From IMG/VR virus record IMGVR_UViG_3300032770_000019, positions 1 through 64,000 of that record: 64,000 nucleotides of DNA. The stretch is one strand, 5' to 3'. The number at the start of each line of letters is the position of its first letter. The stretch's first letter is position 1. The position numbers and the translations under genes were made by a program. The notes beneath the pieces were generated by a model. It saw only the letters and a program-made list of their open reading frames with translations, did not search any database and had not been told where the DNA came from. Below, piece after piece: positions 14,003 to 36,813 of the stretch. The DNA is from a virus.

Positions 14003-14085
14003 CCCTGAACGTCCTGCTCAACGGGTACCTAACCGCCGTAAAAAGCGAGATGCGTCACGAACCCCGTTGAGCAGGGCCTTGAGGG
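14003..14085 (+). other. structured intergenic element, family copy 1
   Basis: ccctgaac-gtcctgctcaacggg...cccgttgagcagggc-cttgaggg. Confidence 0.75.
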
Positions 14086-14092
14086 AAAGGAG

Positions 14093-14188
14093 ATGACGAT
14101 GGACGACGACGATCCTAACGAAGAGGCGTACGTGAGCGAACTGTTCGCGGACGCGACACAAGAGGTACGCGATCAAGATCCGGCTTGA
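14093..14188 (+). CDS. 31-aa acidic peptide (below ORF-track cutoff)
   Basis: SD AAGGAG; MTMDDDDPNEEAYVSELFADATQEVRDQDPA. Confidence 0.4.
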   Translation: MTMDDDDPNEEAYVSELFADATQEVRDQDPA

Positions 14189-14213
14189 CATGCCATTCCG
14201 GGCATGATAGCCT
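14185..14213 (+). promoter_or_regulatory. promoter TTGACA-N17-TAGCCT with catgcc/ggcatg inverted repeat
   Basis: Read directly from sequence. Confidence 0.7.
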
Positions 14214-14259
14214 GGTCATTACATAGGGAAGCAACCGCAACAGAGGAGTGGATTTAGAA

Positions 14260-14988
14260 ATGGCTACTGTGTCCCAGCAGCTGCGCGCCAAGAAGCCGGC
14301 TGCCGCTAAGCCCGCAGCCAAGCCAGTCGCTGCGAAGCCTCAGGCGGCTAAGCCAAAGGCACCGGCGCCTAAGCCTCCGCAGCCGACCGAGCCTGAGGTC
14401 GAGAAGAAGGAAGAGCTGACCCCGGAGCAGAAGGCCGCAATCAAGGAGGAGAAGAAGAAGGCAGCTTTCGCGAAGCTGAAGGCCCGTGCCGAGGAGAAGA
14501 AGAAGGTCAAGGTCGCCGCCCGCAAGGAAGCGATGAAGTCCCTCAAGGGCGAGCTCGAGGTCGGTCAGCACGTCTTCATGACGCGCGCCAGCTATTACGG
14601 CTGCGAGGCCGTAGTGGAGGGCTTCGAGGAGGTCCGGGGTCGTAACCTGGTCGTGCTCAAGGTCGTCAGCACCAAGAAGGGTCGCGCCCTCGAGGACGAC
14701 AAGACCTATATCCGCAAGGTGTCGCCGAAGTTCGTTCAGGACGAGCGCCCGACCGAGCCTTACGTGAAGCGCCGGGCCACCGCCGCCTCCGATGAGGCCG
14801 AAGAGGAGGCACCGGAGGAGCTCGAAATCGAGGAGGAAGAGGCCGAGCTCGAGGACGAGGAAGGCGAAGAGGAGTCCGAGGAGGAGGAAGAGTCTGAGGA
14901 GGAGGAGGAGGAAGAGGCCACCGAGGACGACTCCGAATCGGAGGAGGACGAGGACTCCGACGAAGAGGATGAAGAGAGCTGGGGCTAA
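14260..14988 (+). CDS. protein with K/A/P-rich N-terminus, central beta domain and very acidic tail
   Basis: AAKPAAKP repeats; about 60-residue E/D tail; strongly GC3-biased codons. Confidence 0.8.
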   Translation: MATVSQQLRAKKPAAAKPAAKPVAAKPQAAKPKAPAPKPPQPTEPEVEKKEELTPEQKAAIKEEKKKAAFAKLKARAEEKKKVKVAARKEAMKSLKGELEVGQHVFMTRASYYGCEAVVEGFEEVRGRNLVVLKVVSTKKGRALEDDKTYIRKVSPKFVQDERPTEPYVKRRATAASDEAEEEAPEELEIEEEEAELEDEEGEEESEEEEESEEEEEEEATEDDSESEEDEDSDEEDEESWG

Positions 14989-14997
14989 TCCCAAGCA

Positions 14998-15036
14998 TCC
15001 GGGTGCCGTTACCGATACGCTCTGACGGCACCCGGA
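14998..15036 (+). terminator. GC-rich hairpin after the acidic protein gene
   Basis: tccgggtgccgtta / tgacggcacccgga. Confidence 0.6.
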
Positions 15037-15196
15037 CTTCAACGTCCGGCTGGAACCGACGTTACTCGCAGGCAAAGGTGTCGAACCGGCGATCCGGAAT
15101 ACGAGCAGCCAGTCCTAGGCGGTCTGTCAGTCCGGGTAGGTAGACACAGCTAGCTGTAGCGGTGGTCAGTGGAGGCGTTTCAGCCGGGCCTTGAGG
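15037..15196 (+). ncRNA. candidate structured RNA, family copy 2 with large internal domain
   Basis: cttcaac-gtccggctggaac ... gtttcagccgggc-cttgagg closes about 120 nt with internal hairpins. Confidence 0.5.
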
Positions 15197-15208
15197 AAAA
15201 GGAGGGAC

Positions 15209-15343
15209 ATGCCCCGTTACAGTTACAACAAGTGGTTCGGCTTCAATACCGAATTCACGGAGGCGGATCGCGTTCCGCCTCCGGGTGTACCGAAAATGGC
15301 TAAAAAGCATCCGAAGAAACGCAAGCGAAAGAAGGCGAAATGA
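15209..15343 (+). CDS. 44-aa basic peptide
   Basis: SD AGGAGGG; ends KKHPKKRKRKKAK; ATGA-coupled to next ORF. Confidence 0.55.
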   Translation: MPRYSYNKWFGFNTEFTEADRVPPPGVPKMAKKHPKKRKRKKAK

Positions 15344-15498
15344 ACGCCGGAGAAATCGCCTCGCTGGTAACTGCCGTAGTGGCGTGCCTCGGAGCACTTA
15401 CCGCGTACCTCAAGTCACGTACGGCTACTAAGCAAGCAGCTGCCACCAAAGCCCAGCTTGACGCGCATGTCGATTCTTATCGTCACCTTTCCAAGTAA
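15340..15498 (+). CDS. 52-aa single-TM membrane peptide
   Basis: MNAGEIASLVTAVVACLGALTAYLKSR... Confidence 0.55.
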   Translation: MNAGEIASLVTAVVACLGALTAYLKSRTATKQAAATKAQLDAHVDSYRHLSK

Positions 15499-15543
15499 CG
15501 TCACCGCCCGTCGCTTCGTGGACGCTAGGAAAGGCACAACGTT

Positions 15544-15795
15544 ATGTCGAATGGTACTACCGAGAACGCAGATGCAACGCCGAGTCAATGGAATAGCGGG
15601 AAGCCTCCGACACACGGTTACTACCTCGGTGCCTGGCGACACGGAGACAGATGGTTCGTTAGCGAGCTATGGTACAACCCCGATAGCGTCTACACCGGCT
15701 GGTGGACCGGAAGAGGCTATCTTGAAGAACGCTCAGATCCACGAAGCGTACAAGTACAGTACTGGATGCCGATGCCCGATGCACCTAAGTCCTGA
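15544..15795 (+). CDS. DUF551-like protein
   Basis: W...KPP..G.YL...VQYWMPMPDAP. Confidence 0.65.
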   Translation: MSNGTTENADATPSQWNSGKPPTHGYYLGAWRHGDRWFVSELWYNPDSVYTGWWTGRGYLEERSDPRSVQVQYWMPMPDAPKS

Positions 15796-17116
15796 GCAAA
15801 TCAAAGCAGCGAACCTCTTTCTCGAGCACGAAACGTTTGCTTGCTATGATCCGCAAGGAGCTGGGAAAACGGCAGTAGCAATTAACGCTGCTGTTGAACA
15901 CGGTCAGTTTCCCGTTCTAATTGTACTTCCAGCTCACTTGATACCGCAATGGCGAATGCAGCTTGAACTCTGGGGCGTACCAGCGGAGGAGATCGCCACT
16001 GCCCCGAGAGGTTGCGGTCCTGCGATTAGGCACGCCGCACTACAAAGTGACTGTGCTTTCACGCTTGTATCGTACAACACCCTTGCAAGCTACGACTATA
16101 TGCCGGAGTGCTTGGACCCTCGCTGGAAAGCATACGTATTTGACGAGAGCCATCGAATGGGGCGCAACGGTAAAGGGCAAGCGTGGCATCATGCTAAGCT
16201 GCTGCGTACTAAGTCACGGACAAAGCACACGCACACTCCGATTTGGCTGCTTTCGGGCACACCCCTAGTAAAGAACGCAGTCGACGTTTGGCCACTACTA
16301 TTCCTCGTTAACAAGTACAAGTACGGTAACCGCGAAAGGTTTGCTCGTGATACCTGCCATACCTACCAAGGCGACTACAGCCTGCAAATCGGTGCTGTCA
16401 AAGATACCCATGCCTTTCATCAGCTGCTTGGCCAGCATAGCATTCGTAGATCATGGCGTGAAATTCCGAGCCTCGCTGGACTGTCGAGAAGGGACGTTAA
16501 CCTTCCACTGGAGCTTGCTCCGAAGGATCTCAACCGACACCGTGAAATCAAAAGGAACTACCGAGATCCGGAGACCGGAGAGCCACTGAATAGCTCGGCT
16601 CAGATGATTCACGCGCTGAGGCGTTTGACCATATCAGCCAAGGTGGAGGCGGTGACAGAATTCGTACAGGACCACCCAGGAAGGTTGTTGCTCCTCGCCT
16701 GGTACAGGTCAAGCGCCCATTCCCTGGCCACCGCGGTTTCGCGTGTCAACAAAGTACCGATTGCCTACGTTGACGGGGGCACACCGGAAAGACAACGCGA
16801 ACATGCGTTTAGCACGTACAGTAGCGATTCGAATTGCATATTCGTTGGTACAATCGGCTCGATGGCGGAAGGGTGGGACGGCTTCCAGCGGATCGGGCAT
16901 CAGGTACTATTTGCGGAGCAGCATTACCTTTCAGCAACGAACGAACAGGCCGTTGCGCGCGTCCTTCGTCGCGGTCAATCGCAGCCAGTTCTGGTATACT
17001 GGATGTATGCACTTAAAAGCTTTGATATGCGCGTACGTCGCGTTGCTAAGAAACGCCAAGCTGATATCGACGAAGCGCTAGGAGAGTTCTTGAAGGAGGA
17101 AGAATGGCGCCAGTAA
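15779..17116 (+). CDS. SNF2-family (SF2) helicase
   Basis: QGAGKT, FDESH, LSGTP, EQAVARVLRRGQ; likely start MHLSPEQ. Confidence 0.88.
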   Translation: MHLSPEQIKAANLFLEHETFACYDPQGAGKTAVAINAAVEHGQFPVLIVLPAHLIPQWRMQLELWGVPAEEIATAPRGCGPAIRHAALQSDCAFTLVSYNTLASYDYMPECLDPRWKAYVFDESHRMGRNGKGQAWHHAKLLRTKSRTKHTHTPIWLLSGTPLVKNAVDVWPLLFLVNKYKYGNRERFARDTCHTYQGDYSLQIGAVKDTHAFHQLLGQHSIRRSWREIPSLAGLSRRDVNLPLELAPKDLNRHREIKRNYRDPETGEPLNSSAQMIHALRRLTISAKVEAVTEFVQDHPGRLLLLAWYRSSAHSLATAVSRVNKVPIAYVDGGTPERQREHAFSTYSSDSNCIFVGTIGSMAEGWDGFQRIGHQVLFAEQHYLSATNEQAVARVLRRGQSQPVLVYWMYALKSFDMRVRRVAKKRQADIDEALGEFLKEEEWRQ

Positions 17117-17487
17117 AGTACTCGATAGGGCGTCTCACGGACCTGCTTACCGATGCTGCGAAAACGAAATACGCGAAGGACCTGCTATGCGCTCGGGACG
17201 TTTGCGATAAGCTAGCAGAAGCAGTACCGCCACCTAAGGAAGGTCGAAGCGCAACATACAATACGCTAGCCTTGCTAATGTCAGTGAACGTCATCATCAC
17301 ACCAGACAGTCCGCCGGGTCACTTTCGTCTCGTTAGACACGACAACTGCAAGGTGAACGACCCGTGGACGGAAATCGATAGTACCGACGGAGGCGGAATT
17401 GTCTACGTAGCTCCTCCAGCTTCGCCACCGCCACTTACCGTTTCGCATTCTGAATGTTCGATTCTAGAAGAAGGAGTACTCGAATGA
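17104..17487 (+). CDS. hypothetical protein
   Basis: SD GGAGG; operon packing. Confidence 0.6.
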   Translation: MAPVKYSIGRLTDLLTDAAKTKYAKDLLCARDVCDKLAEAVPPPKEGRSATYNTLALLMSVNVIITPDSPPGHFRLVRHDNCKVNDPWTEIDSTDGGGIVYVAPPASPPPLTVSHSECSILEEGVLE

Positions 17488-17891
17488 GCACCGAGGAAAT
17501 CGAAGCGCATAACCACCTACCGGTAGCTCCGTGCAAGCCGGACTGCCCGGGATACGCAAGCGTTCAAGTAGAGAAAGCAACTTCAGCACTCGTTACCGTT
17601 GAGTACGAGTTTGCCGCCGTCCAGCGGGAGGCGGATGAACGGTTGCCTATCGGCTGGTGCAACGCATGCGTCGCCAACGCTAAGAACGCTCAGGACCAAG
17701 GACTACCGGCGGATGCGATTCACGCAGGCGTTACAACAATCGCTCAGATTCAGAAGCTTAAGCTTCCCGATCAGCCGATGCCCGTAACGGTCGTTATCCC
17801 ACTTCCTTCGTGCCTATACCACATTGGTATCGATAAGTCCGGCTCGCGAAGGATTCAGGTAGCTGACGGTCCACTACCTCCTCGCGTTTGA
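17484..17891 (+). CDS. hypothetical protein
   Basis: SD AAGGAG; ATGA overlap. Confidence 0.6.
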   Translation: MSTEEIEAHNHLPVAPCKPDCPGYASVQVEKATSALVTVEYEFAAVQREADERLPIGWCNACVANAKNAQDQGLPADAIHAGVTTIAQIQKLKLPDQPMPVTVVIPLPSCLYHIGIDKSGSRRIQVADGPLPPRV

Positions 17892-17917
17892 CAGGCCTGT
17901 AGGTAATCGGGTATACT
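17888..17917 (+). promoter_or_regulatory. promoter TTGACA-GGCCTGTAGGTAATCGGG-TATACT
   Basis: GTG 17924 is 7 nt after the -10 box (possibly leaderless). Confidence 0.8.
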
Positions 17918-17923
17918 TTAAGG

Positions 17924-18130
17924 GTGCGATGGTTTAAGCGAAAGAAAAAGACAACGGGCGGTCTTGGCAATACGCTGCGCACCCTCGAAACACCGTCCGA
18001 GTACGACCAGCGAGCAGCTTTCTACGGTCGTTGCAAGAAGTGTAACGAGCCGCTCGATATATGCTTGACCGCTGACCCTCGTAGGGACACCTATTATCTC
18101 TACTGTCCTAGTTGCGGGAAACGCCAATGA
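17924..18130 (+). CDS. small Zn-ribbon protein
   Basis: CKKC...CPSC. Confidence 0.55.
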   Translation: MRWFKRKKKTTGGLGNTLRTLETPSEYDQRAAFYGRCKKCNEPLDICLTADPRRDTYYLYCPSCGKRQ

Positions 18131-18426
18131 ACCCGGTAGATACGTTTCGCAGGAACATGCGCTATTATCGATTGAAGCGCGGCTGGACGTTCCAGGAGCT
18201 ATCTCACTACTCAGGAGTGTCGGACTCCGTCCTAGCAAAGTTCGAGCGCTCACGATCTCGTGGACTGTCGCTTAGATCCGCTATAGAAATAGCTAGGTCA
18301 CTTGAGGTGACAATGGACGATATGCTACGGGTTCAGGTAATACAAGAAAGCGAGATAGAAGATATGGAATACGAAATACGCTCACGATCCTCCCGCGCAG
18401 GAGCACTAAATCGGAGATCCGAATGA
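18127..18426 (+). CDS. XRE-family HTH regulator
   Basis: RLKRGWTFQELSHYSGVSDSVLAKFER...IARSLEV. Confidence 0.8.
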   Translation: MNPVDTFRRNMRYYRLKRGWTFQELSHYSGVSDSVLAKFERSRSRGLSLRSAIEIARSLEVTMDDMLRVQVIQESEIEDMEYEIRSRSSRAGALNRRSE

Positions 18427-19646
18427 AGGAACTAGTATTTCCGCCTAACTGGAAGCAGCGACCGGTTCCTAAGGAACGCAAAGGTAAGTTCCTAGTAAGC
18501 GTAAACGAGCTTAACTCTTTCCAGCGGTGCCGCCGTGCGTGGGATATCACGTCACCGTCACGCCAGTCATTGCACCGTATCGGTATGCCCGTCCCTGCGT
18601 TGCACATTGGTAGTGCCGTTCACTATTCAATGGCTTCGCTGGCTCTCGGTGGCGATCCGGTAGCTGCCGCGTTGATCTTCTACGAGGATAGCAAGGAGCA
18701 GCTGGAAAAGAAGTATATCGAAACGGTCGGCGCACCCCTTAGTAGTCAAGAACTAGCGATATTGGCGGAACAACGTGACCAAGTCGTTGATATGGTTCGA
18801 GCTTATACTGCTCGCTACGGAAAGCGTAACCCTACTAAACCTTATAAGATTGTTGCGCCAGAAGTCACGTTCGAGATACCGCTCGTTCCAGATTACGGCA
18901 TATACCTCGTTGGGACTATTGACCGCGTGCATGTCGATGCTTACGGTAATCCTATACCTGGCGAGGTAAAGACCTACAAAGCCAAGCCGAATAAGACCGG
19001 CTGGCGCTATAACCATCAAGTGTACGGTTACGCAGCTGCGCTACAGGTGCTAACGCGTAAGAGGGTACCGTTGGCGCTATACGATGGAATACGCAAGAAA
19101 GCACCCGAGCCTCCTAGGATATTGAAAGATGGAACGGTATCTACAGCTTGGATTGATACTACATACGATCTTTACCGAGCTACGCTCCTCGAAGTGTATA
19201 ACGGTGATAAAAGTGTACTTGTTCACCCGGCGTACGCTCCGCTATTGCAGCGTCTGTGGAACCGTGATCACTCCGCAGACAGTGCGTTCCATACGAGGTT
19301 CCGGGTGCCGATATCACAACACGCGATCGAACTATGGTGGGACCAAGCTCAGGTACTAGCAATGGAGATGGCGCATTCTCCGATAATCTACCCGAACTTC
19401 GACTGGCAGGGTTGTCCGTTGTGTCGGGTACGCGATCTATGCCACGCCATTCAAGGAGGAGAACTTCAAGCTCAAGACGTAATTCGTAGCGAATTTACTA
19501 GGGGGCTAACACATACACGACAGGCAAAGCACGTAGCAACGCCGCAGAATGTCAAAAGCATCGATGACCTCATCGCGTTCGCTGGCGAAATGTCACCGGA
19601 CAGACCGTTCGAGATATCCACGGAGGCAGAAAGTGACCCGAGTTGA
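18423..19646 (+). CDS. Cas4/RecB-like PD-(D/E)XK exonuclease
   Basis: FQRCRR, IGSAVH, GTIDRV, EVKT, Q..GY, CPLCRVRDLC. Confidence 0.8.
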   Translation: MKELVFPPNWKQRPVPKERKGKFLVSVNELNSFQRCRRAWDITSPSRQSLHRIGMPVPALHIGSAVHYSMASLALGGDPVAAALIFYEDSKEQLEKKYIETVGAPLSSQELAILAEQRDQVVDMVRAYTARYGKRNPTKPYKIVAPEVTFEIPLVPDYGIYLVGTIDRVHVDAYGNPIPGEVKTYKAKPNKTGWRYNHQVYGYAAALQVLTRKRVPLALYDGIRKKAPEPPRILKDGTVSTAWIDTTYDLYRATLLEVYNGDKSVLVHPAYAPLLQRLWNRDHSADSAFHTRFRVPISQHAIELWWDQAQVLAMEMAHSPIIYPNFDWQGCPLCRVRDLCHAIQGGELQAQDVIRSEFTRGLTHTRQAKHVATPQNVKSIDDLIAFAGEMSPDRPFEISTEAESDPS

Positions 19647-19855
19647 ACGCAGCTGCAGCGACACACGCTAGGACTTCGCATGTAACGATTAAGGAGCTCA
19701 GAAGGCGAATTCGCAGCGAGCAGACACTTCGCTATCGCTCACTACGTGAGCTTAAAGATAGCGGACTTTCCTATCGCGCCATTTCAAAGCTCACGGGTAT
19801 TCCGAGGAGCACCGTCGCGTACGTACTAAACAACCCGGAGGAGTGGTACCAATGA
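19643..19855 (+). CDS. HTH DNA-binding protein
   Basis: GLSYRAISKLTGIPRSTVAYVL. Confidence 0.7.
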   Translation: MNAAAATHARTSHVTIKELRRRIRSEQTLRYRSLRELKDSGLSYRAISKLTGIPRSTVAYVLNNPEEWYQ

Positions 19856-20430
19856 GTAAGCCTGAGATTTACGTGTCAATCGACATCGAGACCGATGGTC
19901 CGGTAGCCGGAATCAATTCAATGCTGTCGCTAGGTGCAGCAGCATTCGTGGACGATCCGGTTACGCCACTCGATGAGTTCTACGACAAGCTCGCTCCACT
20001 TTTCGGAATGGTATCGAATCCGGAAACGATGAAGTGGTGGGAAACGCAGACCGAGGCATACGCCGAAGCAACACGAAATCCGAGCGCACCGCACGAAGTA
20101 GTAGCTGCCTTCAATATCTGGTGCGAAAAGCTTTCTAGCGACGGAAAGCTAATCGCGGTCGCCTGGCCAGCGGCATTCGACTTTCCCTTCGTCAACTACT
20201 ACATGCACGCGTTCCTAGGAAAGAATCCACTAGGCTTCGCTTGTCTCGACATCCGCAGCTATGCGAATGGCTTGATGAAGGAAGCTAACTACTACGGTCT
20301 CAAGGAGGAAGAGGTTCGTCACGTAGTCGGTGAGATCGACAAAACGGACCTACGTCCGCACTTCGCTATCGACGATGCGATCGAACAAGGCCGTCTCTTC
20401 ATGGCACTACGAAAGCTGACATCGCAATGA
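19852..20430 (+). CDS. DEDDh 3'-5' exonuclease
   Basis: SIDIETDG, AAFDF, HFAIDDA. Confidence 0.85.
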   Translation: MSKPEIYVSIDIETDGPVAGINSMLSLGAAAFVDDPVTPLDEFYDKLAPLFGMVSNPETMKWWETQTEAYAEATRNPSAPHEVVAAFNIWCEKLSSDGKLIAVAWPAAFDFPFVNYYMHAFLGKNPLGFACLDIRSYANGLMKEANYYGLKEEEVRHVVGEIDKTDLRPHFAIDDAIEQGRLFMALRKLTSQ

Positions 20431-21865: not shown

Positions 21866-21902
21866 GTAGAAACCCGGTTACGTCTAGTAGCCGGGTTTCT
21901 AC
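21866..21902 (+). terminator. hairpin terminator
   Basis: gtagaaacccggttac / gtagccgggtttctac. Confidence 0.7.
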
Positions 21903-22358: not shown

Positions 22359-22784
22359 ATGGCCAGGCTAGTACTACTGAGCTTCAAAGACAACGCTGAG
22401 GCTGAACGCCTAGCTCAGAACTTGACGGAGAACGAAGGCGATATCAGTACCGTCATTCCCTGTACGGCTCATATCGAATGGGTTATCGCTCAGCCGACAA
22501 AAGCGTGTCAGTGCGGGCTGTCTGAGCAGCCGGTAAAACGCTCGCGTAGGCGTAAAGGACTTAACCGTACCAGCGCAGATGCGTTCTCGAAAGGTAGGCG
22601 TTTCGGCTGGTGGTGCCATGCTACGTGCCACCGCGTTTCGCGAGGCGTGCTGGAACGCTTTGTCGCCAATCTGACTAACGGCAACTACGACCTGCTACCG
22701 GAAATCCTCGACGATCCCGAACGCGTGCCCAACGACATGCGTCGCTTCCACGACTTCATGCCGAACATTCGGAGCAAGCGATGA
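22359..22784 (+). CDS. hypothetical Cys-containing protein
   Basis: PTKACQC...GWWCHATC. Confidence 0.6.
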   Translation: MARLVLLSFKDNAEAERLAQNLTENEGDISTVIPCTAHIEWVIAQPTKACQCGLSEQPVKRSRRRKGLNRTSADAFSKGRRFGWWCHATCHRVSRGVLERFVANLTNGNYDLLPEILDDPERVPNDMRRFHDFMPNIRSKR

Positions 22785-25207: not shown

Positions 25208-26062
25208 ATGGATAGGCTATCAGGCTCCAAAAGCCCTGTCAAGTTCGACCTTTTCGTTGCGCAACAGCTAATTGACAGTGGTACTCCGCTGGTTATCGCT
25301 AAGTCGATGCCGAACGGAAAAGTCAATCCTATCGAGAAGGCATGGCAGGACAAAACGCCTGACCAGCGGACACTCGACCAATGGTTGAGCGGTGTCGGTA
25401 CCGTTCTGGGTGCCGTCATGGGTCGTACGTACGATGTCTTCGATTTCGACCCGCAAAATGGCTGTTCACTAGCCGAGTTTCTCGATTATTACGCCTCGCT
25501 TGGCAATAAGTCTCTTTGTGTGCAAGCCATAACCGCTACACCATCGGGCGGTCACCATCTTTGGGTACGTACCCTACAAAAGCCAAAGCGCAATCCTATT
25601 ACTCGCGGAGTTGACTATCAAGGTCAACGCACCTGGGTAGCCATTCCGCCTTCACGCAAGCCGAGCAAAGTCACCGGCGAAGTTTTGCCATACAAGTGGC
25701 TAGAGTACAATCCAGATGGAGGAACCGGCAATGACTCTGGCCTTGCTATTTGGACAGCGCTGTCGCAATGGCCGAACCATTCTCCGCTACCATCGAAACG
25801 CGAAGCGCAGCACCGCGAGTCCGAGAAAGTCACACGTTCCGACGTACGCGAATACCGAAAGGACGGACTACCTCCGAACTCGGATCACGACAACCTACTA
25901 AGCCATATCACCTTCCTCCTATGCCTATGGGGAGCAAACGAGAATGTCGCACTCGAAATATGGCAAGACATCGTGGACAATACCGAACTCAAAGGACGCG
26001 AATACGAAGCGGAGCGTGACTTCTACCGTCACTGGAATGGAGCGTTGCGGAAGCTAAGATGA
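25208..26062 (+). CDS. bifunctional primase-polymerase (prim-pol)
   Basis: DVFDFDPQNG, TPSGGHHLW, GVDY...VAIPPS; SD AGGAGGT. Confidence 0.85.
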   Translation: MDRLSGSKSPVKFDLFVAQQLIDSGTPLVIAKSMPNGKVNPIEKAWQDKTPDQRTLDQWLSGVGTVLGAVMGRTYDVFDFDPQNGCSLAEFLDYYASLGNKSLCVQAITATPSGGHHLWVRTLQKPKRNPITRGVDYQGQRTWVAIPPSRKPSKVTGEVLPYKWLEYNPDGGTGNDSGLAIWTALSQWPNHSPLPSKREAQHRESEKVTRSDVREYRKDGLPPNSDHDNLLSHITFLLCLWGANENVALEIWQDIVDNTELKGREYEAERDFYRHWNGALRKLR

Positions 26063-27420
26063 GCAAAGAAGCTGATGAGCTCCTCAAGGACCGTAGCACT
26101 ATCGGTGATTACACGCAATCCGAATACGCGGATCGCTTTACAGAAGAATACGGTGATCGCTTCCGTTACATACCTCCAGAGGACCGATGGCTAAACTATA
26201 GCGACGGACGATGGCGCGAGGATCAATACGACGCAGCATTCCACTTCGCGGAAAAAATGTGTCGTCAGATTCTCGAAGACACTCCGAAAATGTCTAGCAG
26301 CGGAACAAAGACAAATCCGTACCGCGAAGTAGCACGCTCACGTTGCAGTGCAGCCAGTATCGCAGCGGTATGCCGAATAGCACGCACGAAGCGACCGATC
26401 GTAACAACCCGCGACAAATTCGACGCTAATCCGTACTTGCTCAACACACCAAACGGCACATACGACCTGCTAACTGGCGAGATACTCCCGCACGACTCGA
26501 AGCACATGATTACGCACATAACCAGCGGAGTATACTCCCCGGATATCGAAGCACCCGAAGACTTTACGGAATACTTCGATGAGGTACAAACGCTTGAATG
26601 GCAAGAACAGCTATGGCGAGCGGTTGGCTGCTCACTTCTCGGAGTGTTCGGTGAATACGCCTTCCTCCACACCGGTAGTGGCGGTAACGGTAAATCCACC
26701 TTTCTCGATCTCGTAGGTGAAGCGTTGGGCGACTACGCTGATGAGGCCAGCTGGAAGGTCCTCCACAAAATCGGTGAAGAAGCTCACGAAACCATTCTCG
26801 AAGACCTTCGCGGAAAACGCGTATCGATCATTCATATGGGCTCGCGAAGTCTCTCACCCGAGCAACTGCGGCTACTCGTATCGGAATCGACCGTAAAGGC
26901 GCGTGGCATGCGCGAAAACATGCACACGTTTCGCGCATCGCATACCTTCCACGTATCAATGAACAATCCGCCTCCGATGAACGACCTTGACGCCAGTGTT
27001 CGGAGGCGATTGCTGATTGTACCGTGGAACGTAACTGTCCGTGAGCCCGACCCGATGCTAAAAGAGCGCCTACGAATAACCGCCAAAGACTATGTGCTAA
27101 CGCAGCTGATCGATGGCTACCAGCGGTGGTCGCTTGCGCAATTCCCCCGTGATCCTACCGAAGCGCAATTCAGCAAAAACCCGATATATGCTTTCGGTAC
27201 TACGTGCTGCGAATTCGACCCGACCTACAGCGAACTAACCGAAAATCTCTATGCAGCTGCTCAGCGATGGGCAGAGGACACCGGTGAAAAGCTACCATCT
27301 CCGGCGATCTTCGGACGGACTCTTAGCCGCACCTTTAACCTTTCCAGCTATCGTACTAGCGGCTCCCCAAGAAGGAAAGGTTGGTCGGGTATTCGGCTTA
27401 TTACCGACTACCATGTCTAA
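26059..27420 (+). CDS. D5/P4-type SF3 helicase
   Basis: LLNTPNGTYDL.TG, GSGGNGKST, RRLLIVPW. Confidence 0.88.
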   Translation: MSKEADELLKDRSTIGDYTQSEYADRFTEEYGDRFRYIPPEDRWLNYSDGRWREDQYDAAFHFAEKMCRQILEDTPKMSSSGTKTNPYREVARSRCSAASIAAVCRIARTKRPIVTTRDKFDANPYLLNTPNGTYDLLTGEILPHDSKHMITHITSGVYSPDIEAPEDFTEYFDEVQTLEWQEQLWRAVGCSLLGVFGEYAFLHTGSGGNGKSTFLDLVGEALGDYADEASWKVLHKIGEEAHETILEDLRGKRVSIIHMGSRSLSPEQLRLLVSESTVKARGMRENMHTFRASHTFHVSMNNPPPMNDLDASVRRRLLIVPWNVTVREPDPMLKERLRITAKDYVLTQLIDGYQRWSLAQFPRDPTEAQFSKNPIYAFGTTCCEFDPTYSELTENLYAAAQRWAEDTGEKLPSPAIFGRTLSRTFNLSSYRTSGSPRRKGWSGIRLITDYHV

Positions 27421-27682
27421 CATAGGCTAGGACACTATCTTTTATAAGATACTGAGGCGATAGGACATGATAAGGACATGGTACCTAAACACCTTCTACT
27501 GCAAGGACACGATAGGACACGTAAATACACCACATATACCATGTACCTTACATGCACCCGTAAGGTTACATGTATGAATCCCAACGTTCTCAACTTTCGT
27601 GTCCTATCGTGTCCTTGCAGTAGACGGTGCTTAGGATCGTATCCAGCGTACGCATACCGACCGTGTCCAAAACCATGTCCTG
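27421..27682. repeat. probable replication origin: 38-bp inverted repeat (27484-27521 / 27598-27635) with AGGACA iterons
   Basis: Arms match 36/38; several ggacac/ggacat on the left and gtgtcc/atgtcc on the right; AT-rich centre; follows the helicase gene. Confidence 0.7.
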
Positions 27683-28917: not shown

Positions 28918-28983
28918 CCGAAAAGGCCCTCACGGGGGAACACCCGGTTGACCCCCGCACCGGGAATGTGAGGGCCTTTTCGG
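28918..28983. terminator. 16-bp stem (bidirectional terminator-like) with structured loop
   Basis: ccgaaaaggccctcac / gtgagggccttttcgg. Confidence 0.65.
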
Positions 28984-29003
28984 TCGCTTAACCTAAAAAT
29001 CTT

Positions 29004-29033
29004 TTGACAGGCCTGTAGCAAATCGGCTATACT
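29004..29033 (+). promoter_or_regulatory. promoter TTGACA-GGCCTGTAGCAAATCGGC-TATACT
   Basis: Read directly from sequence. Confidence 0.82.
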
Positions 29034-31221: not shown

Positions 31222-31390
31222 AGTACGCACACGCATTACTCTAGAATGCGATCATACATATTCGCATCCGGGACCGCCTAACGAAATCGAACGAGTTACT
31301 GAAGCGCATAAAGAACCGAAAGTACTATGTCCGACGTGCAGAGTGTCGCTGCGAATAGTAAACACGCAGATAGTAGTTAAAAAGAGGTGA
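31208..31390 (+). CDS. small Zn-binding protein
   Basis: LECDH...CPTC. Confidence 0.45.
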   Translation: MDNGKVRTRITLECDHTYSHPGPPNEIERVTEAHKEPKVLCPTCRVSLRIVNTQIVVKKR

Positions 31391-31396
31391 CCAGCA

Positions 31397-32218
31397 GTGG
31401 GTAGATATCAGGACACGATCGAGTTCCTCGAAGTCGATCGCATTCACGCCAATCCCGACAACCCGCGCAAGGAAGCCGGCGACGTAACCGACCTAGCTAA
31501 CTCGATCGAAGAGATCGGCATGGTACAACCGGTCTCCGTTCGTGGCGATAGCCGCTTCGGTACCGGTCACTACATTCTCGATTCGGGTCTCCGTCGCTGG
31601 ACGGCAGCGAGACTAGCCGGTACCGCAAAGATACCCGCACGAATCTACATGATGTCTCCCGGTGAGGACCCCGTAGAGCGTACCTTGCTCGTAGGCCTTT
31701 CCGACGTTCACAGCGAAGAGCTTAACCCGATGGAAAAGGCTTTCGCGTTTGCTCGCCTCCGTGACCTGACGGACCCGCCTCGTCCCCAAAACGATATTGG
31801 TCGGCTGTGTGGTGTTACCGGAGCAACGGTGAGCTACTACCTGTCACTACTCGAGCTCTCGGTTAAGACGCAGGAAGCCGTAGCTAACGGCAGAGTTAGC
31901 GTAGAGCTTGCCGTTAAGTCAGTACGCCAGGAGCGAGCACGTAAGCGACGCAAGAAAGGGCATAAGCCGTCCACCGCTGGGTGGGAACCGGACGCGTTTA
32001 ACGAAAAGCACTTCCTGTCACGCAAAGCCAAAGCGCTGTGCGACTCGCGAGGCCATTCGAATAGGCGTCGCCATGGCGGTGCATGTCACGGCTGCTGGGA
32101 GACCACTATCCGCATGGACGAGGCAAAGGTACAGCAGATCGCATGGCGTGAGCAAGGCTACGACCTTCCGTACCAAGACCCGGCAACTAACCTGCTAAGG
32201 AGTGCACTGACGCCATGA
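31397..32218 (+). CDS. ParB/Spo0J-like protein with HTH
   Basis: NPDNPRK, GMVQPVSV, GLRRWTAA, LNPMEKA, HTH. Confidence 0.8.
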   Translation: MGRYQDTIEFLEVDRIHANPDNPRKEAGDVTDLANSIEEIGMVQPVSVRGDSRFGTGHYILDSGLRRWTAARLAGTAKIPARIYMMSPGEDPVERTLLVGLSDVHSEELNPMEKAFAFARLRDLTDPPRPQNDIGRLCGVTGATVSYYLSLLELSVKTQEAVANGRVSVELAVKSVRQERARKRRKKGHKPSTAGWEPDAFNEKHFLSRKAKALCDSRGHSNRRRHGGACHGCWETTIRMDEAKVQQIAWREQGYDLPYQDPATNLLRSALTP

Positions 32219-32439
32219 CATTCGAATACCCAGCGGAAGTAGTGTTCGAACGCGCAGAAGCTCTCCGAACACTTGACAGGGAGCGCACAGCACTACAAGC
32301 ACACATCGCAGCGGACCACGAAGTGCTAAAGCGTATCTGGGACCTGCACCGTAGTGATAACTTCCTAAGTCCGTACTGTACCGGCTGCGAGCTCGCATGG
32401 CCTTGCCCGACCATTAGAGCGTTCGATGCCGCAATTTGA
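32215..32439 (+). CDS. hypothetical protein
   Basis: LH...CTGC..WPCPTIRA. Confidence 0.6.
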   Translation: MTFEYPAEVVFERAEALRTLDRERTALQAHIAADHEVLKRIWDLHRSDNFLSPYCTGCELAWPCPTIRAFDAAI

Positions 32440-32740
32440 CGAGCGCCATTGCCTTCAATATGCCCTCGTCTTCGGCTTGCAGTATCCGTACGCTCCGGCG
32501 GTATACGGTACCGAAGGTATGTCCGACCACGAAATCCTCCGCTGGCTACAAAGCCACTGCGATAACCTTTCGCCGTCCGCTCAGTACAAGCTTAAGCATA
32601 GCGATCTTAAAGGCGGTTCGCCGATACCTGGCGTCTCTATCGTACGACATAACAAGTGTATAGTCTGCGGTACGGATTCGCCCTGTGCGAAGCGAATCGT
32701 TGAACGTAGCAACTTCTGGAGGAAGGTGTTCGGTCGATGA
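32426..32740 (+). CDS. hypothetical protein
   Basis: ORF track; operon packing. Confidence 0.45.
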   Translation: MPQFDERHCLQYALVFGLQYPYAPAVYGTEGMSDHEILRWLQSHCDNLSPSAQYKLKHSDLKGGSPIPGVSIVRHNKCIVCGTDSPCAKRIVERSNFWRKVFGR

Positions 32741-33012
32741 GAATAGATGAAGAAATCGGCGTAAGTTACCGGCAGATCGACTGGTGGACGCGTCAGGGGT
32801 ATCTTAACGTAACCGGTAACGGCAGTGGGACGATGCGCAACTTCACCAACGTCGAAAAGGAAGTTGCTCGCTTGATGGGCCGCCTTGTTCGTGTCGGCTT
32901 TGCACCGAAGTCAGCCGCCGGTATTGCCCGTGTCGCAGTGGAGGAACATGCAAGTACCCTCGACCTGGGTGACAATATCGAATTGCAGATCGGTGCACCA
33001 GTTACTGTCTGA
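32737..33012 (+). CDS. MerR-type HTH protein
   Basis: GVSYRQIDWWTRQGYL...GSGTMRNF. Confidence 0.75.
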   Translation: MRIDEEIGVSYRQIDWWTRQGYLNVTGNGSGTMRNFTNVEKEVARLMGRLVRVGFAPKSAAGIARVAVEEHASTLDLGDNIELQIGAPVTV

Positions 33013-33123
33013 CCGGCTACACAAGTACTGCAGCTGTCAGACCGGGAGCGTGTCAATGTGACCAAGTCGGTGACAGGCACCGTCCTGAGCACCTGAGGAA
33101 TTTTAGCCAAACCCGTAGGTGCT

Positions 33124-33789
33124 GTGGTTGGACCCATGATGACCCTGCCCCACCCAAAACTGAAAGGTACTACATTGACAGAGTTCGGCAAGGAATTTCG
33201 CCGTACTACATTGACAGAGTTCGGCAAGGAATTTCGCCAGAGAATGCACGACGAGCAGGACGTTGACCAGCGGGCATTCCGTGATCTCGACATACCGGTG
33301 TTTCGAACGGTACCGTATTCGGTTCCGCTGGGCAGGCGTTACGTATACGATAATCGCACACCGCAGATTAAGATGTCGGACTACAACTACGTGCCGGTGC
33401 TAAAGCAGCTAACGCAAGATAGCATACTCATCGAGTGGGACATTGCATATACGAAGGAAGCCCTAGAGACCTTTATCGAGTACTGCAAAGACCAGCCGCA
33501 AATCGTACACGTTGCACCGTATAAGCTTTACCCGATAAGCACTGCACTTGAAAAGCCGGTATGGGTACATCGTACCTATGAGCCAATGTGGTGGGTCAAT
33601 CGCTACGACCCGTACTGTCAGCTATTCGGTTTCGGCTTTGTCTACCTCCCGCTGGATGCCGTTCACGCTTTCCTCGAAACTAAGCCTGAAAAGGCTGACG
33701 ATGCACGATTCTCGAAATGGTACTGGGAAACGTACAAGACAGCAACACCGATACACTGGAACGTCGAAATCATTCACTTGCATTGGTAG
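33124..33789 (+). CDS. possible GT-A-like glycosyltransferase (start uncertain)
   Basis: ILIEWDIA (DxD-like), VAPY, GFGFVYLP, IHLH; weak. Confidence 0.45.
   Translation: MVGPMMTLPHPKLKGTTLTEFGKEFRRTTLTEFGKEFRQRMHDEQDVDQRAFRDLDIPVFRTVPYSVPLGRRYVYDNRTPQIKMSDYNYVPVLKQLTQDSILIEWDIAYTKEALETFIEYCKDQPQIVHVAPYKLYPISTALEKPVWVHRTYEPMWWVNRYDPYCQLFGFGFVYLPLDAVHAFLETKPEKADDARFSKWYWETYKTATPIHWNVEIIHLHW
33167..33238 (+). repeat. perfect 36-bp tandem duplication
   Basis: gtactacattgacagagttcggcaaggaatttcgcc x2. Confidence 0.95.
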
Positions 33790-33798
33790 GAGCAGCTA

Positions 33799-34002
33799 AT
33801 GTCGCCGGAGATGGAAAGCATCAGCAGAGTACGCTCGCTGGTTAGCTGGCTGCGGAAGACCGGAAAGCAACCGACCAGCTACCCGAAGCTTAGTGCGATG
33901 ACCGAGACCGAAGTACGCGAAGCGAAGTACTTCGCCAGCGGAATCTATCCGATGCCTGTCCGCTGGACGCGTAGGCTTTTTGAGCTTGCAAGGCAGGACT
34001 AA
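33799..34002 (+). CDS. hypothetical protein
   Basis: SD AGGAG. Confidence 0.5.
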   Translation: MSPEMESISRVRSLVSWLRKTGKQPTSYPKLSAMTETEVREAKYFASGIYPMPVRWTRRLFELARQD

Positions 34003-34033
34003 TTCTGCTAAACTCAAAGGGAGAGGTGACCCG

Positions 34034-34390
34034 ATGGGAAAACGGTTTAGCGGTACGAAATCAGGTGGTTCACGAACTAGTATCGGCGTTGCGGTAACGC
34101 TTGATTACGCTGAAACGCGAGACATGCGTGAACGCCTACTGCACAAGCGAGGAGCCGGTATTGCGCCCGGACATCAGCCAAACGGCTTCCCGCACTTCAG
34201 TAGCTCAAAGCACCACCGTTGCCTATGCCTCAATAGATGCTGTCTCGGACCGGCCGGCTGCATCTGCCCCGACTGTCCGTGTACTGTGCAAACGGTAGAA
34301 ACGTGCTTCGCGTGCGGTGACCCAGCGACGAATCGCGTACAAGGCGAATGGCTATGTAGCCCCTGCAAGAAGGAGTTCGAAAGTGAATAG
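34034..34390 (+). CDS. Cys-rich hypothetical protein
   Basis: SD GAGGTGA; CLCLNRCC...CICPDCPC. Confidence 0.55.
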   Translation: MGKRFSGTKSGGSRTSIGVAVTLDYAETRDMRERLLHKRGAGIAPGHQPNGFPHFSSSKHHRCLCLNRCCLGPAGCICPDCPCTVQTVETCFACGDPATNRVQGEWLCSPCKKEFESE

Positions 34391-34531
34391 TAAAAATATC
34401 CCGATACTAATTCTTCCGAAGATTTCGGACGATCTAAATGCCGAACTCCCGGAAGCCGTCGCTGAGCTAATTCTACCTAACCGGGAGGTAAAAAATGAGA
34501 CACGTAAGACCGCCTTCGGGTCGGCAATCTG

Positions 34532-35398
34532 ATGACAACGCCACCGAGAGTAACAAAACCGAAGCCACCTGTAAAGTCGCCTTCCGAAGCGGCACCGGAG
34601 AATGGTGCCAGTGCTGGTACTACTGCACCCGATACCACGTCCAGCTCAGCGGCCCCGTGGAGTCCGGTCAGTAAGGTCGCACACTTCCAAGGCCTCTCGC
34701 TGGCCTTGTTCGGTCCACCGGGGGTCGGTAAAACGACACTCCTGGCTACTGCACCGGACCTGCTTCTCGTTAACTTCGATCCGGACCTTACCTCGCTGCA
34801 AGATCGCGATGACGTAATGACGTGGCCCGGTGAAAAGCAAGGCGGTGTCGTAAAGAGCTGGCAGCAGATCAGTGCGTTTAGTGCGCAAATGCTACGCAGA
34901 AAGCATCCGTTCAAGACGGTAGCGTTCGACACGATTAACGGTATGTACGACCTGGCATACCAGAACGTAACGGAAAGAGGCAGTCCGAACCGCGATGGTA
35001 GGCAGATTTTCGGAGAGGCTAACGACCTGGTTCTCGGCATTGTCAAGGACTGGTGCATGGCAGCACGCGAGACCGGTATCAACGTTGTCTTCTCAGCGCA
35101 CAGCGAAGAAAAGCAGGACGGAGAAAACGGTCCCCTTGTGCTTCGCATGTCTATCACGCCAGGTGTCGTCAAAGGCACTTACCAGCGGGTCAGCAATGTC
35201 GGCTGTCTGCTGGAGCTCCCGGGAGTCGGACGGCACCGTAAGCTGTACCTTCATAACACCGCAAAAATCGTCGCAAAGGTGCATCAGCCGAAATCCGGAC
35301 CGCAACTCCCGCTGGAAATCGTCGATCCCGACCTCGGCAAGATGATCGACCACATTAAAGGCGTCAAGCCATACCCGAAGCCGGAGGTAAAGAAGTGA
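34532..35398 (+). CDS. AAA ATPase, Sak4-like
   Basis: FGPPGVGKTT, TVAFDTI, VVFSAH. Confidence 0.8.
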   Translation: MTTPPRVTKPKPPVKSPSEAAPENGASAGTTAPDTTSSSAAPWSPVSKVAHFQGLSLALFGPPGVGKTTLLATAPDLLLVNFDPDLTSLQDRDDVMTWPGEKQGGVVKSWQQISAFSAQMLRRKHPFKTVAFDTINGMYDLAYQNVTERGSPNRDGRQIFGEANDLVLGIVKDWCMAARETGINVVFSAHSEEKQDGENGPLVLRMSITPGVVKGTYQRVSNVGCLLELPGVGRHRKLYLHNTAKIVAKVHQPKSGPQLPLEIVDPDLGKMIDHIKGVKPYPKPEVKK

Positions 35399-35607
35399 TT
35401 CTTAAGCTACTTCAACGCATTTCGCCACGCCCCTGTCAGCTCTGCGGACGGAAGTACGGCGTACGCCGTAACTACATAAGGCTATGGAACGGTACGCGCT
35501 TTACTCTTTGCATCTCCTGCGTATACCGCACCGGCCTTGCTACCGTCATTGACGAAGTCAGTAGAAACATCGTCGCACGCTATCAGGACGCAGAATGCCC
35601 TTCCTAA
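35395..35607 (+). CDS. small Zn-finger protein
   Basis: CQLC...CISC. Confidence 0.45.
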   Translation: MILKLLQRISPRPCQLCGRKYGVRRNYIRLWNGTRFTLCISCVYRTGLATVIDEVSRNIVARYQDAECPS

Positions 35608-36155
35608 TTGCAGCTATAGCCATACTCGTAATCGTAGCTGTCGTTCTCTACGTTCGTAAGCGTCCGGAGCCGTTTACGGGTATCAATCCCGCAATGCTGG
35701 AGGAGAAGAACGCAGAGATAACTGAGCTGCGACAGCAGCTAGAACAAGCTAATCTTCGGACGTTTCGTATACAAGACGAAGCCGCACTCGCGCTGAAAGA
35801 AGAACGTCACCGCCTACAACTGGAATGGGCGGAGACAAAGCGAGCCGATCGAAAGGCGAGTAATGAACGCTCACGGTCCGCACTGGTTGCGAAAATTGCG
35901 GAACATATGGCACCTTTCCTCCCCGGCTTCGCGTTCAATCCGAAAGACGCTAGACATATCGGAGAGCTCATTGACTTCATCGTATACGATGGCTTGGAAG
36001 ATGGCGAAATACGCGAGGTGGTATTTCTAGAGGTAAAGACACGACGCACCGGTCGAGTATCGAACCCTCGCGAAAGGCTTCTTAAAGAAGCTATCGATGC
36101 TGGAAGGGTTAGTTACCGGGTGTTCGTACCCGAAGTAATACGTAAGCAGTCTTGA
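35595..36155 (+). CDS. archaeal-type Holliday-junction-resolvase-like nuclease with N-terminal TM
   Basis: EHMAPF..F..NPKDARHIG..IDFIVYDG...FLEVKT. Confidence 0.75.
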   Translation: MPFLIAAIAILVIVAVVLYVRKRPEPFTGINPAMLEEKNAEITELRQQLEQANLRTFRIQDEAALALKEERHRLQLEWAETKRADRKASNERSRSALVAKIAEHMAPFLPGFAFNPKDARHIGELIDFIVYDGLEDGEIREVVFLEVKTRRTGRVSNPRERLLKEAIDAGRVSYRVFVPEVIRKQS

Positions 36156-36181
36156 CACATTCGTAGTGGCTGATATATGCT
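36152..36181 (+). promoter_or_regulatory. promoter TTGACA-N18-TATGCT
   Basis: Read directly from sequence. Confidence 0.7.
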
Positions 36182-36230
36182 ATAGGTACGGGCAAATGAC
36201 CCGCCCGACAAGGGTCAAAGGAGGATCCCC

Positions 36231-36662
36231 ATGCCGGTTACCGTTGACCTCACTGGCGTTACCGCCGGTGGACCGGAACCGTGGGAAGCCGGAAACTACC
36301 CGGCTATCATCACGAAGGCGGAAATCAAGCCGTCAAGGAGCTCAGGAGAGGACGCGCTTTACCTCGACCTGGCAATGACCAAGGAAAGCGAGGACGGAGA
36401 GGACCCCGAAGAGCGTACGCTCCGCTGGAATACGTCCATGCAGACTAAGCAGCTCGGGCGTTTCAAGCAGCTGCTTATCCGACTCGGATTCGAGTTCCCG
36501 GAGGAAGGAGCATTCGAGTTCGACGAGCAAGACCTGGTCGGTCAGGAGTGCGTGGCTAGGCTTACGCTAGAGCCGCACTATCGCGACCCGGAGCGTATGA
36601 CGAACAAGGTAGCCGAAATTCTCGGCACCGACACCGATGGACAAGGAGACTGGGGCGGATGA
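36231..36662 (+). CDS. DUF669-like ssDNA-binding protein
   Basis: AGNYPAIITKAE...DLVGQEC; acidic C-terminus; near Sak4. Confidence 0.7.
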   Translation: MPVTVDLTGVTAGGPEPWEAGNYPAIITKAEIKPSRSSGEDALYLDLAMTKESEDGEDPEERTLRWNTSMQTKQLGRFKQLLIRLGFEFPEEGAFEFDEQDLVGQECVARLTLEPHYRDPERMTNKVAEILGTDTDGQGDWGG

Positions 36663-36748
36663 ACAGCGGTAGTAGCGGCAGTAACGTGGACGCGATGTAC
36701 ACGGGCAACACGAATCCGTTCCTGGTGCGCGTGAAGGTTAGCTAACCT

Positions 36749-36813
36749 TCCTTGAACGTCCGGCTCAAACGGACCTTCCTGAGACATGCCCGTCTGAGCC
36801 GGACCTTGAGGGG
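36749..36813 (+). other. structured intergenic element, family copy 3
   Basis: tccttgaac-gtccggctcaaacgg...ccgtctgagccggac-cttgaggga. Confidence 0.75.

Follow-up and report, generated by a model that had tools for sequence, protein, structure and literature searches.

The RNase III hairpins of the phages T7 and T3 (R0.3, R1.1 and others) are long, imperfect and intercistronic; they lie on the early sense transcript and occur as several look-alike copies per genome. The nut sites of lambda (boxA/boxB) and the put sites of HK022 are found in two or three copies past the first gene behind the early promoters, and contain conserved non-paired positions. The repetitive extragenic palindromes (REP) and REPINs are imperfect palindromes with conserved mismatches that are located just past genes and can protect the upstream mRNA. 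The TRIT elements of Mycobacterium tuberculosis and the Correia elements of Neisseria are described as conserved-sequence hairpins without a U-tract at the 3' ends of genes. Both are tied to RNA 3' ends, and their role as RNase III substrate is given as putative for TRIT and as known for the Correia repeats (PMC13714241). The PeSL motifs of T4-like phages are presented as short conserved stem-loops beside small variable early open reading frames (ORFs), linked to the gain and loss of cassettes (PMC4122927). Here, a hairpin element is described that occurs three times in the genome of an uncultured virus (IMG/VR record IMGVR_UViG_3300032770_000019; 72,494 bp, rated 98% complete, labelled G000). 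The stretch analysed, called the window, comprises bases 1 to 64,000 of this record. The three hairpins are members of a genuine family of structured RNAs that had no name so far and is found in distantly related phages.

An initial annotation of the window had pointed to a shared closing motif at three sites, and this motif is indeed present at all three on the + strand (copies 1 to 3, Table 1). Each copy combines a left half-site, 5'-T(G/C)AACGTCC, with a right half-site, GG(G/A)CCTTGAGG. The core common to the three reads 5'-YYUGAACGUCC / GGRCCUUGAGG-3', and the variable outer and upper stems on either side of it still pair. The C·C mismatch that had been claimed for every copy is seen at 3 of 3 sites, while the G·G mismatch claimed for two of them is found in copies 1 and 3, with a C-G pair in copy 2 (TCAAC). 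The enclosed lengths had likewise been given correctly (37, about 120 and 17 nt). The right half, GGRCCTTGAGG, has three exact matches in the 72.5-kb genome, none on the reverse strand and none in the reversed control. When up to one mismatch is allowed, this 11-mer gives 7 matches where 1.69 are expected, a number that none of 100 shuffles attains. The left 9-mer has five exact matches, three of them inside the elements; because it is not rare alone, the pairing of both halves is decisive. A full covariance-model scan of the window with the filters off revealed no copies beyond the three.

Copies 1 and 3 each fold into a single long hairpin (-43.1 kcal/mol, z -5.4, and -38.8 kcal/mol, z -5.3, respectively). 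Copy 2 shows no clean closure when folded from 15030, and in the minimum-free-energy (MFE) structure of 14990 to 15215 its closing stem (15037-15052 with 15181-15196) is formed alongside a separate, abutting hairpin. The MFE folds of the copies consist of one long helix with two 1x1 mismatches, and the consensus has 21 to 25 pairs. The helix is thus continuously double-stranded over about two turns (at least 20 bp), as in a substrate of RNase III. From the outside inwards, an outer stem of 3 to 10 pairs, which vary, is followed by the core (5'-UGAAC GUCC with GGRC CUUGA-3' as its partner), then by an upper stem of about 10 to 20 pairs, likewise variable, and by an interior of 13 to 128 nt, which is either a free loop or a branched insert.

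Further copies were gathered with a covariance model (R1) and by pattern scans in which both halves of the core were required and the spacer was left free. True copies were told from chance matches by folding and by R1: real copies score 31 to 85 bits, chance matches about 18 to 27 bits. After removal of duplicates and antisense echoes, 31 distinct copies were obtained, and one more in G544 brings the number to 32. They are distributed over about 19 records of uncultured viral or metagenome contigs and one bacterial metagenome-assembled genome (MAG), with three copies in G000 and one to three in the other records. The first pattern scan of viral contigs returned 9 loci (5 real), the second pattern scan 13 (8 real) and the scan of metagenomes 53, of which 18 hold a match of at least about 31 bits. 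Pattern matches were dropped where the arms were not complementary by eye (L065, L066, L070 and L071) or where no fold into a hairpin was found (L072, L073, L075, L077 and L078). When viral contigs were scanned for an exact 16-mer, 59 loci were returned; the 5' motif is upstream of none of them (0/59), so that all are chance matches.

In a genome collection of 185,579 species, the pattern scan returned 26 loci, of which one is true (47.2 bits) and the others score at most 26.7 bits. This sole cellular copy found is carried by a Streptosporangiaceae MAG (G006), which is also the only match of a pattern search through 401 genomes of the class. A model search of 151 Streptosporangiaceae genomes failed to detect even this known carrier and is hence uninformative. 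The copy (L115, 6630-6701, minus strand) is located directly 3' of the stop codon of the gene for a protein of 547 amino acids (aa), the N-terminus of which resembles a signal peptide; a tRNA gene adjoins. The surrounding stretch of about 3 kb has a lower GC content (0.61-0.64 vs about 0.70). The copy may be a phage-derived cassette, and it gives a hint to the host group; the actinophage identity implied in the initial annotation is putative. Among cultured phages, no match was found by megablast, nor for a 357-aa structural ORF of this phage. tblastn with its helicase reached 134 cultured-phage records, all below 60% identity, the best having 24.8% among the 25 matches listed, and a helicase-based search for related loci brought no relative. 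With the element itself, blastn reached 16 records of cultured phages; the 15 matches listed are only partial (21-27 nt), and the annotated ones lie within genes. A literature text search for the core strings gave, among the matches listed, only unrelated ones, apparently primers.

The phages that carry the element have between 1 and 11 ORFs in common with this phage, at about 31 to 42% amino-acid identity, including a SNF2-type helicase, a family-A DNA polymerase and genes of 7-deazaguanine synthesis. Despite this low protein identity, the core is identical letter for letter across these carriers, a conservation that by far exceeds that of their genomes.

The 31 distinct copies were aligned with MAFFT, independently of the covariance model. 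Pairing is found in 87.3% of the alignment cells and double-sided change in 15 of the 21 pairs. The covariation score is 0.435, compared to 0.172 in shuffles, and is attained by none of 500 shuffles; when the register is slid, pairing is at most 53%. The occurrence of further pair types, one of five measures, was attained by 27 of 500 shuffles. RNAalifold, unaided, returned the same helix with the same two columns open and 4 extra covarying pairs, and an earlier set of 10 sequences had led to the same covariation outcome. A conserved closing motif with a covarying interior, as initially proposed, is therefore borne out by the homologs. Covariation in homologs had been named as the check on which that proposal would stand or fall, and it is strong in the 31 copies, in the 10-sequence set and with RNAalifold alike. 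The structure and its conservation are genuine, with strong statistics behind them.

Within the core itself, pairs are exchanged for other pairs. The U·G pair (23 of the 31 copies) is replaced by U-A in 7 and by C-G in 1, the C-G pair (30) by U-A in 1, and the A-U pair (30) by G-C in 1. The C·C position behaves differently: 29 copies have C·C there, A·C and U·U occur once each, and a Watson-Crick pair in none. Because it is never a Watson-Crick pair through three base combinations, the non-pair is itself under selection. The G·G mismatch is present in 29 copies and replaced by a C-G pair in 2, and is not essential. Both deviating C·C positions are found in direct tandem elements (L099, 8586-8731, in G005; L141, 3140-3285, minus strand, in G008), where the second, shorter copy has U·U (G005) or A·C (G008) and is still unpaired. 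A further variant, in G544 (L200 674-768, corresponding to 25673-25767 of that record), has GCCC/GGAC and thereby C·A in place of U·G, the pair usually found there.

The elements keep to the coding strand and, for the most part, to a place just past a stop codon. In 28 of the 31 copies it starts no more than 25 nt past a stop codon of the sense strand, as compared to 5/31 for the antisense mirror and 683/6200 (11%) for random positions on the same strand. The count takes sense ORFs of at least 40 codons from a crude ORF caller, which takes in spurious frames. The three exceptions are two second copies of tandems and copy 3 of the window, where the upstream ORF has only 28 codons. This ORF (36659-36745) overlaps the stop of the preceding gene for a protein resembling single-stranded DNA-binding protein (SSB) by ATGA, and its TAA coincides with the foot of copy 3; either it is spurious or it may represent a translationally coupled micro-ORF. 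Copy 1 begins 4 nt past the TGA stop at 13999-14001, and for copy 2 the real stop lies 50 nt upstream, with the extra hairpin in between. The fold is more stable on the sense strand in 25 of the 31 copies, and there are 100 G·U pairs on this strand as compared to 53 on the antisense strand. The model scores of the window follow the same pattern, with 46.6 to 65.6 bits on the + strand and 10.4 to 27.9 on the - strand (copy 1: 59.7 vs 16.3; copy 3: 65.6 vs 27.9; copy 2: 46.6 on +). The annotated genes on either side of the elements share their strand. Such asymmetries fit poorly with a site in double-strand DNA and support an element that acts in one orientation, as sense-strand RNA. A stimulator of stop-codon read-through or frameshifting is ruled out: the distance from stop to core ranges from -2 to 25 nt and keeps no single frame.

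It had also been suggested that each stem ends at or near the next ribosome-binding region. This is true for the window, where start codons follow 8, 12 and 11 nt past CTTGAGG (copies 1, 2 and 3), and does not extend to the family, where it is the upstream stop codon that is constant. A Shine-Dalgarno sequence lies within the 3' arm in three cases: copy 3 of the window, G003 (4883-5032) and G008 (267-350). In copy 3, the outer stem covers the Shine-Dalgarno of the next gene, as CTTCCTT pairs with GAGGGGAG.

The hairpins share with intrinsic terminators a GC-rich stem (GC 0.46-0.73). No U-tract follows the stem in the three window copies, which continue with GGGAAAGGAG, GGAAAAGGAG and GGGGAGAG, or in 12 other loci inspected, and a terminator scan of the window does not list the three sites. 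Canonical U-tract terminators are found elsewhere in the window (21866-21902 and about 28950-28994), and in G004 one follows about 15 nt past the element. The element is therefore not the terminator, and no known terminator family was matched, which had been another of the initial annotation's reservations. In vitro, hairpins without a U-tract are reported to have caused no termination by the RNA polymerases of mycobacteria or E. coli (PMC3993855). Rfam 15 gave no match at the gathering threshold in the whole window or in 7 related loci, and the E-value mode returned only sub-threshold matches to generic hairpins (microRNA); the initial remark that the element could not be placed in a named RNA family thus holds. 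A preQ riboswitch 5' of the que genes was rejected, with no Rfam match and with copies 1 and 2 located elsewhere. Rejected as well was a parS site for a phage ParB-like protein: the half-sites are held 40 to 140 nt apart by a paired spacer, and the carriers do not share a ParB.

Elements of the MITE, REPIN or Correia type have outermost conserved inverted repeats and direct target duplications. Here, the conserved core is internal, the outer arms vary between copies and the flanks are inverted complements, not direct repeats. Neither the many copies nor the cognate transposase of a mobile repeat was found, with 1 to 3 copies per genome and no Y1 transposase in G000. A PeSL would have its stem-loop fused to an early promoter. 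In G544, a promoter of the phage type (TTGACA-N17-TATACT) stands 10 nt past the element, in the slot that terminators occupy in the window; perhaps one is also found in G003, and no promoter directly follows the window copies.

In the window, each copy closes a unit headed by a sigma-70-like promoter (Table 1). Near-identical promoters (TTGACA, a spacer of about 17 nt that is often ggcctgtagNaaatcgG, and TAnnCT) head many of the early and middle units. The phage appears to rely on the RNA polymerase of its host, and no phage polymerase gene was seen. No promoter was found between hairpin and next start for copies 1 to 3, and the ORFs behind them therefore need read-through. The genes upstream had been called rich in G and C at third codon positions (GC3) and probably highly expressed. 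The first part stands, with a GC3 of 0.69 to 0.84 compared to 0.46 to 0.65 in the replication genes; as to the second, this composition fits high expression or foreign origin alike. The 242-aa protein encoded before copy 2 starts with a region rich in Lys, Ala and Pro (AKKPAAAKPAAKP...), continues with a small domain in its centre and ends in a long tail of poly-Glu/Asp; it may be an abundant nucleic-acid-binding or host-takeover protein.

Table 1. Coordinates of the element copies, promoters and genes of the window.
Feature	Position	Strand	Description
Element copy 1	14003-14085	+	Outer stem CCCC/GGGG(A), core TGAACGTCC...GGGCCTTGAGG, 15-bp upper stem, 37-nt interior
Element copy 2	15037-15196	+	TCAAC variant, G·G replaced by C-G pair; branched interior of about 120 nt
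Element copy 3	36747-36815	+	17-nt loop; outer stem CTTCCTT paired with GAGGGGAG
Separate GC-rich hairpin	14998-15036	+	Without U-tract; abuts copy 2, 3' of the stop of the 242-aa gene
Sigma-70-like promoter	12580-12608	+	TTGACA-N17-TAGTCT; consensus match only; heads unit 12636-14001, which ends in copy 1
Sigma-70-like promoter	14185-14213	+	TTGACA-N17-TAGCCT; consensus match only; heads the 242-aa gene, which ends in copy 2
Sigma-70-like promoter	36152-36181	+	TTGACA-N18-TATGCT; heads the SSB-like gene unit, which ends in copy 3
Promoter family	9948, 10375, 11199, 12580, 14185, 17888, 21031, 21906, 25056, 27861, 29004, 36152, 47261	+	
Gene 5' of copy 1	13675-14001	+	108-aa ORF, no family; GC3 0.84
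Gene 5' of copy 2	14260-14988	+	242 aa, no family; GC3 0.82; own strong promoter
SSB-like gene	36231-36662	+	phrog_378, E 6.7e-4; GC3 0.69; 5' of copy 3
31-aa ORF	14093-14188	+	Ribosome-binding site directly 3' of copy 1; no own promoter
44-aa ORF	15209-15343	+	Ribosome-binding site AAGGAGG directly 3' of copy 2
RuvC-like resolvase gene	36823-37215	+	TTG start; phrog_1770; first of the block running into the 7-deazaguanine genes
141-aa protein gene	22359-22784	+	Cys/His-rich, basic; weak candidate partner only
QueD-like gene	37208-37627		7-deazaguanine (preQ0) cluster
QueE-like gene	37602-38378		preQ0 cluster
GTP cyclohydrolase I gene	38368-38928		preQ0 cluster
266-aa ORF	38925-39725		preQ0 cluster
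QueC gene	39722-41032		preQ0 cluster; fused to amidotransferase-like N-terminus

Small genes, singly or two together, stand between paired elements in G000 (copies 1 and 2), in G003 (15306/15758) and at L159, L167, L179 and L186, and L159 has three copies within 620 nt. In G003, a block of element, gene and element stands between two genes that are adjacent in G002; the two phages (about 54% amino-acid identity) are too diverged for the breakpoints to be mapped. The inner element and its loop agree to about 90% between G003 (15758-15832) and G002 (6688-6766), while outer stems and neighbouring genes are unrelated. From the bracketing, the G003 block and the inner element shared in unrelated contexts, it appears that the element travels with or between gene cassettes.

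To the question of what the element does, the answer that we prefer, with a probability of roughly 0.4, is that of an intercistronic processing and stability site of the sense RNA, cut by a double-strand-specific endoribonuclease. This would probably be RNase III of the host, the likeliest enzyme because the phage encodes no RNase III or double-stranded RNA-binding domain (dsRBD): genes for neither these nor a Y1 transposase were found in G000. Acting in cis, the element would punctuate the sense transcript between cistrons and at 3' ends. The length of the helix and the precedent of the TRIT and Correia hairpins are in line with this reading. Its invariant centre, with the C·C non-pair and the usual G·G, would be the platform of recognition and cleavage. 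The cut would part the upstream message, that of the GC3-rich gene next to the promoter, from the downstream cistrons. The structure left on the 3' end of the upstream RNA would slow 3' exonucleases, and the ribosome-binding site of the next gene would be freed where the Shine-Dalgarno lies in the 3' arm. Which enzyme cuts, and all that would follow from a cut, is inferred; the release of small RNAs and the tuning of downstream translation, both suggested initially, are likewise putative. Among the early genes, a single RNase-like one was seen; its 195-aa product (ORF 19843-20430) matches an Rv2179c-like 3'-5' exoribonuclease (DEDD) domain (E 8.8e-12).

Several points weigh against this processing site. 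Bacterial RNase III is not known to need an invariant sequence of 11+11 nt, and such conservation points rather to a sequence-specific binder. If the enzyme of the host read the core, host genes might carry it as well, and only one of the 26 genome loci is a true copy. A search of sequencing runs for the phage sequence found two DNA runs and no RNA run. In G544, the element is found exactly at the slot of a terminator, 10 nt before the promoter. Across the family, the next start lies anywhere between about 8 and more than 100 nt away, and translational unmasking therefore cannot be general. The core does present U-C-C-U opposite A-G-G-R, which is weak evidence: about one tetramer in 16 fits W-S-S-W, and the rule is that of another host, E. 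coli. In E. coli, RNase III is reported to prefer W-S-S-W in vivo, with the central G-C positions paired (PMC6212723).

The conservation of the core might also be explained by a sequence-specific RNA-binding protein of phage or host, which would control read-through (by termination or anti-termination), stability or translation at cassette boundaries, much as nut/boxB with N does in lambda or put in HK022, without the site being one for a nuclease. We regard this as somewhat unlikely. An invariant core of 11+11 nt with an obligatory non-pair, kept across phages of about 30 to 40% identity, is a typical platform for recognition by a protein, its near absence from cellular genomes fits a reader borne by the phage, and the copies follow closely on the gene or genes nearest to an early promoter, a place like that of nutR after cro. 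An anti-termination variant of this idea would require terminators 3' of the elements. The sole candidate for such a reader is the 141-aa protein, found in G000, G002, G003, G005 and G008 and at the element-bearing metagenome loci L171, L173 and L196; G544, the only further record reached via this protein, also bears the element. This co-occurrence is biased, as it was mostly seen in loci fetched for the element and only one record is independent; G004 and short contigs, though incomplete, are without the protein. It has no known RNA-binding motif, no Pfam family and no match in a protein atlas. Its AlphaFold2 model has a mean pLDDT of 70.8, Foldseek gave no match at E of at most 0.001, and the best match of VIA-align (Z 3.6) covers residues 1 to 48 only, so that there is no confident fold match. 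It is quite unlikely that the core docks a dedicated phage-encoded factor of this kind, with which it would form a phage-specific RNA-protein switch that sets cutting, stabilisation or read-through for each cassette boundary, as a temporal control of early genes unrelated to nut/N, put or Q.

The element might need no dedicated reader at all, if it were a plain protective hairpin of the 3' end or a weak factor-dependent terminator, the core of which is kept by horizontal spread with cassettes (morons). Its position at stop codons, often at the end of short promoter-driven units, would suit such a role, as would the promoter that immediately follows it in G544 and, probably, past 15758-15832 in G003. 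The GC3 of the upstream genes (0.69-0.84) fits foreign cassettes as well as high expression, and hitch-hiking would be in line with an inner part about 90% alike in G003 and G002 amid unrelated outer stems and neighbours. However, it leaves unexplained why the mismatch is kept through three base combinations and why the core pairs covary when one copy otherwise shows no relation to another in its upper stem and loop. The terminator version moreover meets downstream ORFs that need read-through, and hairpins without a U-tract, as reported, do not terminate in vitro (PMC3993855). Taken together, we hold this account to be improbable. The bracketing of small genes by element pairs (G000, G003, L159, L167, L179 and L186), the block inserted in G003 relative to G002 and the similar inner element in differing contexts could also be read at the level of DNA, as a site for recombination or mobility at the bounds of cassettes, formed by a hairpin (cruciform or of one strand) or by a short block of homology and comparable to the PeSLs of T4-like phages or to REPIN or MITE repeats. 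This is very unlikely: the conserved part is internal while the outermost arms vary, there are no direct target duplications, only 1 to 3 copies per genome and no Y1 transposase, and an 11-nt core is short for homologous recombination. Sense orientation, stop-codon placement and G·U bias are likewise unexpected for a site in double-strand DNA.

Other features of the window concern replication and DNA modification. Directly past a D5-like primase-helicase gene (26059-27420), the stretch 27466-27635 contains a 41-nt inverted repeat (27484-27524 / 27595-27635, 93% complementary) and repeated ATAGGACA-like words, and is a possible replication origin. At about 33170-33241, a 36-nt stretch with TTGACAgagttcggcaaggaatttcgcc is duplicated in tandem inside the ORF 33124-33789. 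The preQ0 synthesis cluster (37208-41032), which suggests modified DNA, has homologs in G003, G005 and G008. It is followed by the gene of the family-A DNA polymerase (41204-43735), with an N-terminal domain of the uracil-DNA-glycosylase superfamily and a 3'-5' exonuclease domain.

If confirmed, the element would represent a new and well-supported structured RNA family, absent from Rfam and from cultured phages and confined to one clade of 7-deazaguanine-producing, uncultured phages of soils and wetlands. The early expression of these opaque genomes would then be organised in units of promoter, gene and hairpin. An invariant 1x1 mismatch in a covarying helix would offer a compact model for how a nuclease or binding protein reads the sequence of double-stranded RNA, and it is this obligatory mismatch, in an invariant core across very distant phages, that is the feature most worth an experiment. 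The element could also serve as an annotation marker for gene ends and coding strand in contigs where most ORFs are without homologs, and possibly as an engineering part, an insulator or processing unit for operon design in the host group.

Compared to the described systems, the element differs from nut and put in sequence and size; no boxA-like motif was seen and no N-like protein identified. REPs occur in hundreds of host copies and are mobilised by RAYT, whereas the element is of low copy number and without transposase, and its conserved part lies inside variable arms. PeSLs are described as including a promoter and acting via DNA recombination (PMC4122927), while here only the G544 copy abuts a promoter and recombination at the elements is putative. 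Its working probably resembles most closely that of TRIT and Correia elements and of the T7 RNase III sites. TRIT and Correia elements are present in tens to hundreds of chromosomal copies, in contrast to 1 to 3 per phage genome and a near absence from cells here, TRIT being compared by its description only. From the T7 and T3 sites the element is set apart by the lack of sequence similarity and by a core that is stricter and kept across far more distant phages; it has 1x1 mismatches where the T7 and T3 sites have a larger internal loop, and cleavage is putative here. In common with the T7 and T3 sites, it has a non-paired spot near the centre of the helix and would act on read-through transcripts, without ending transcription.

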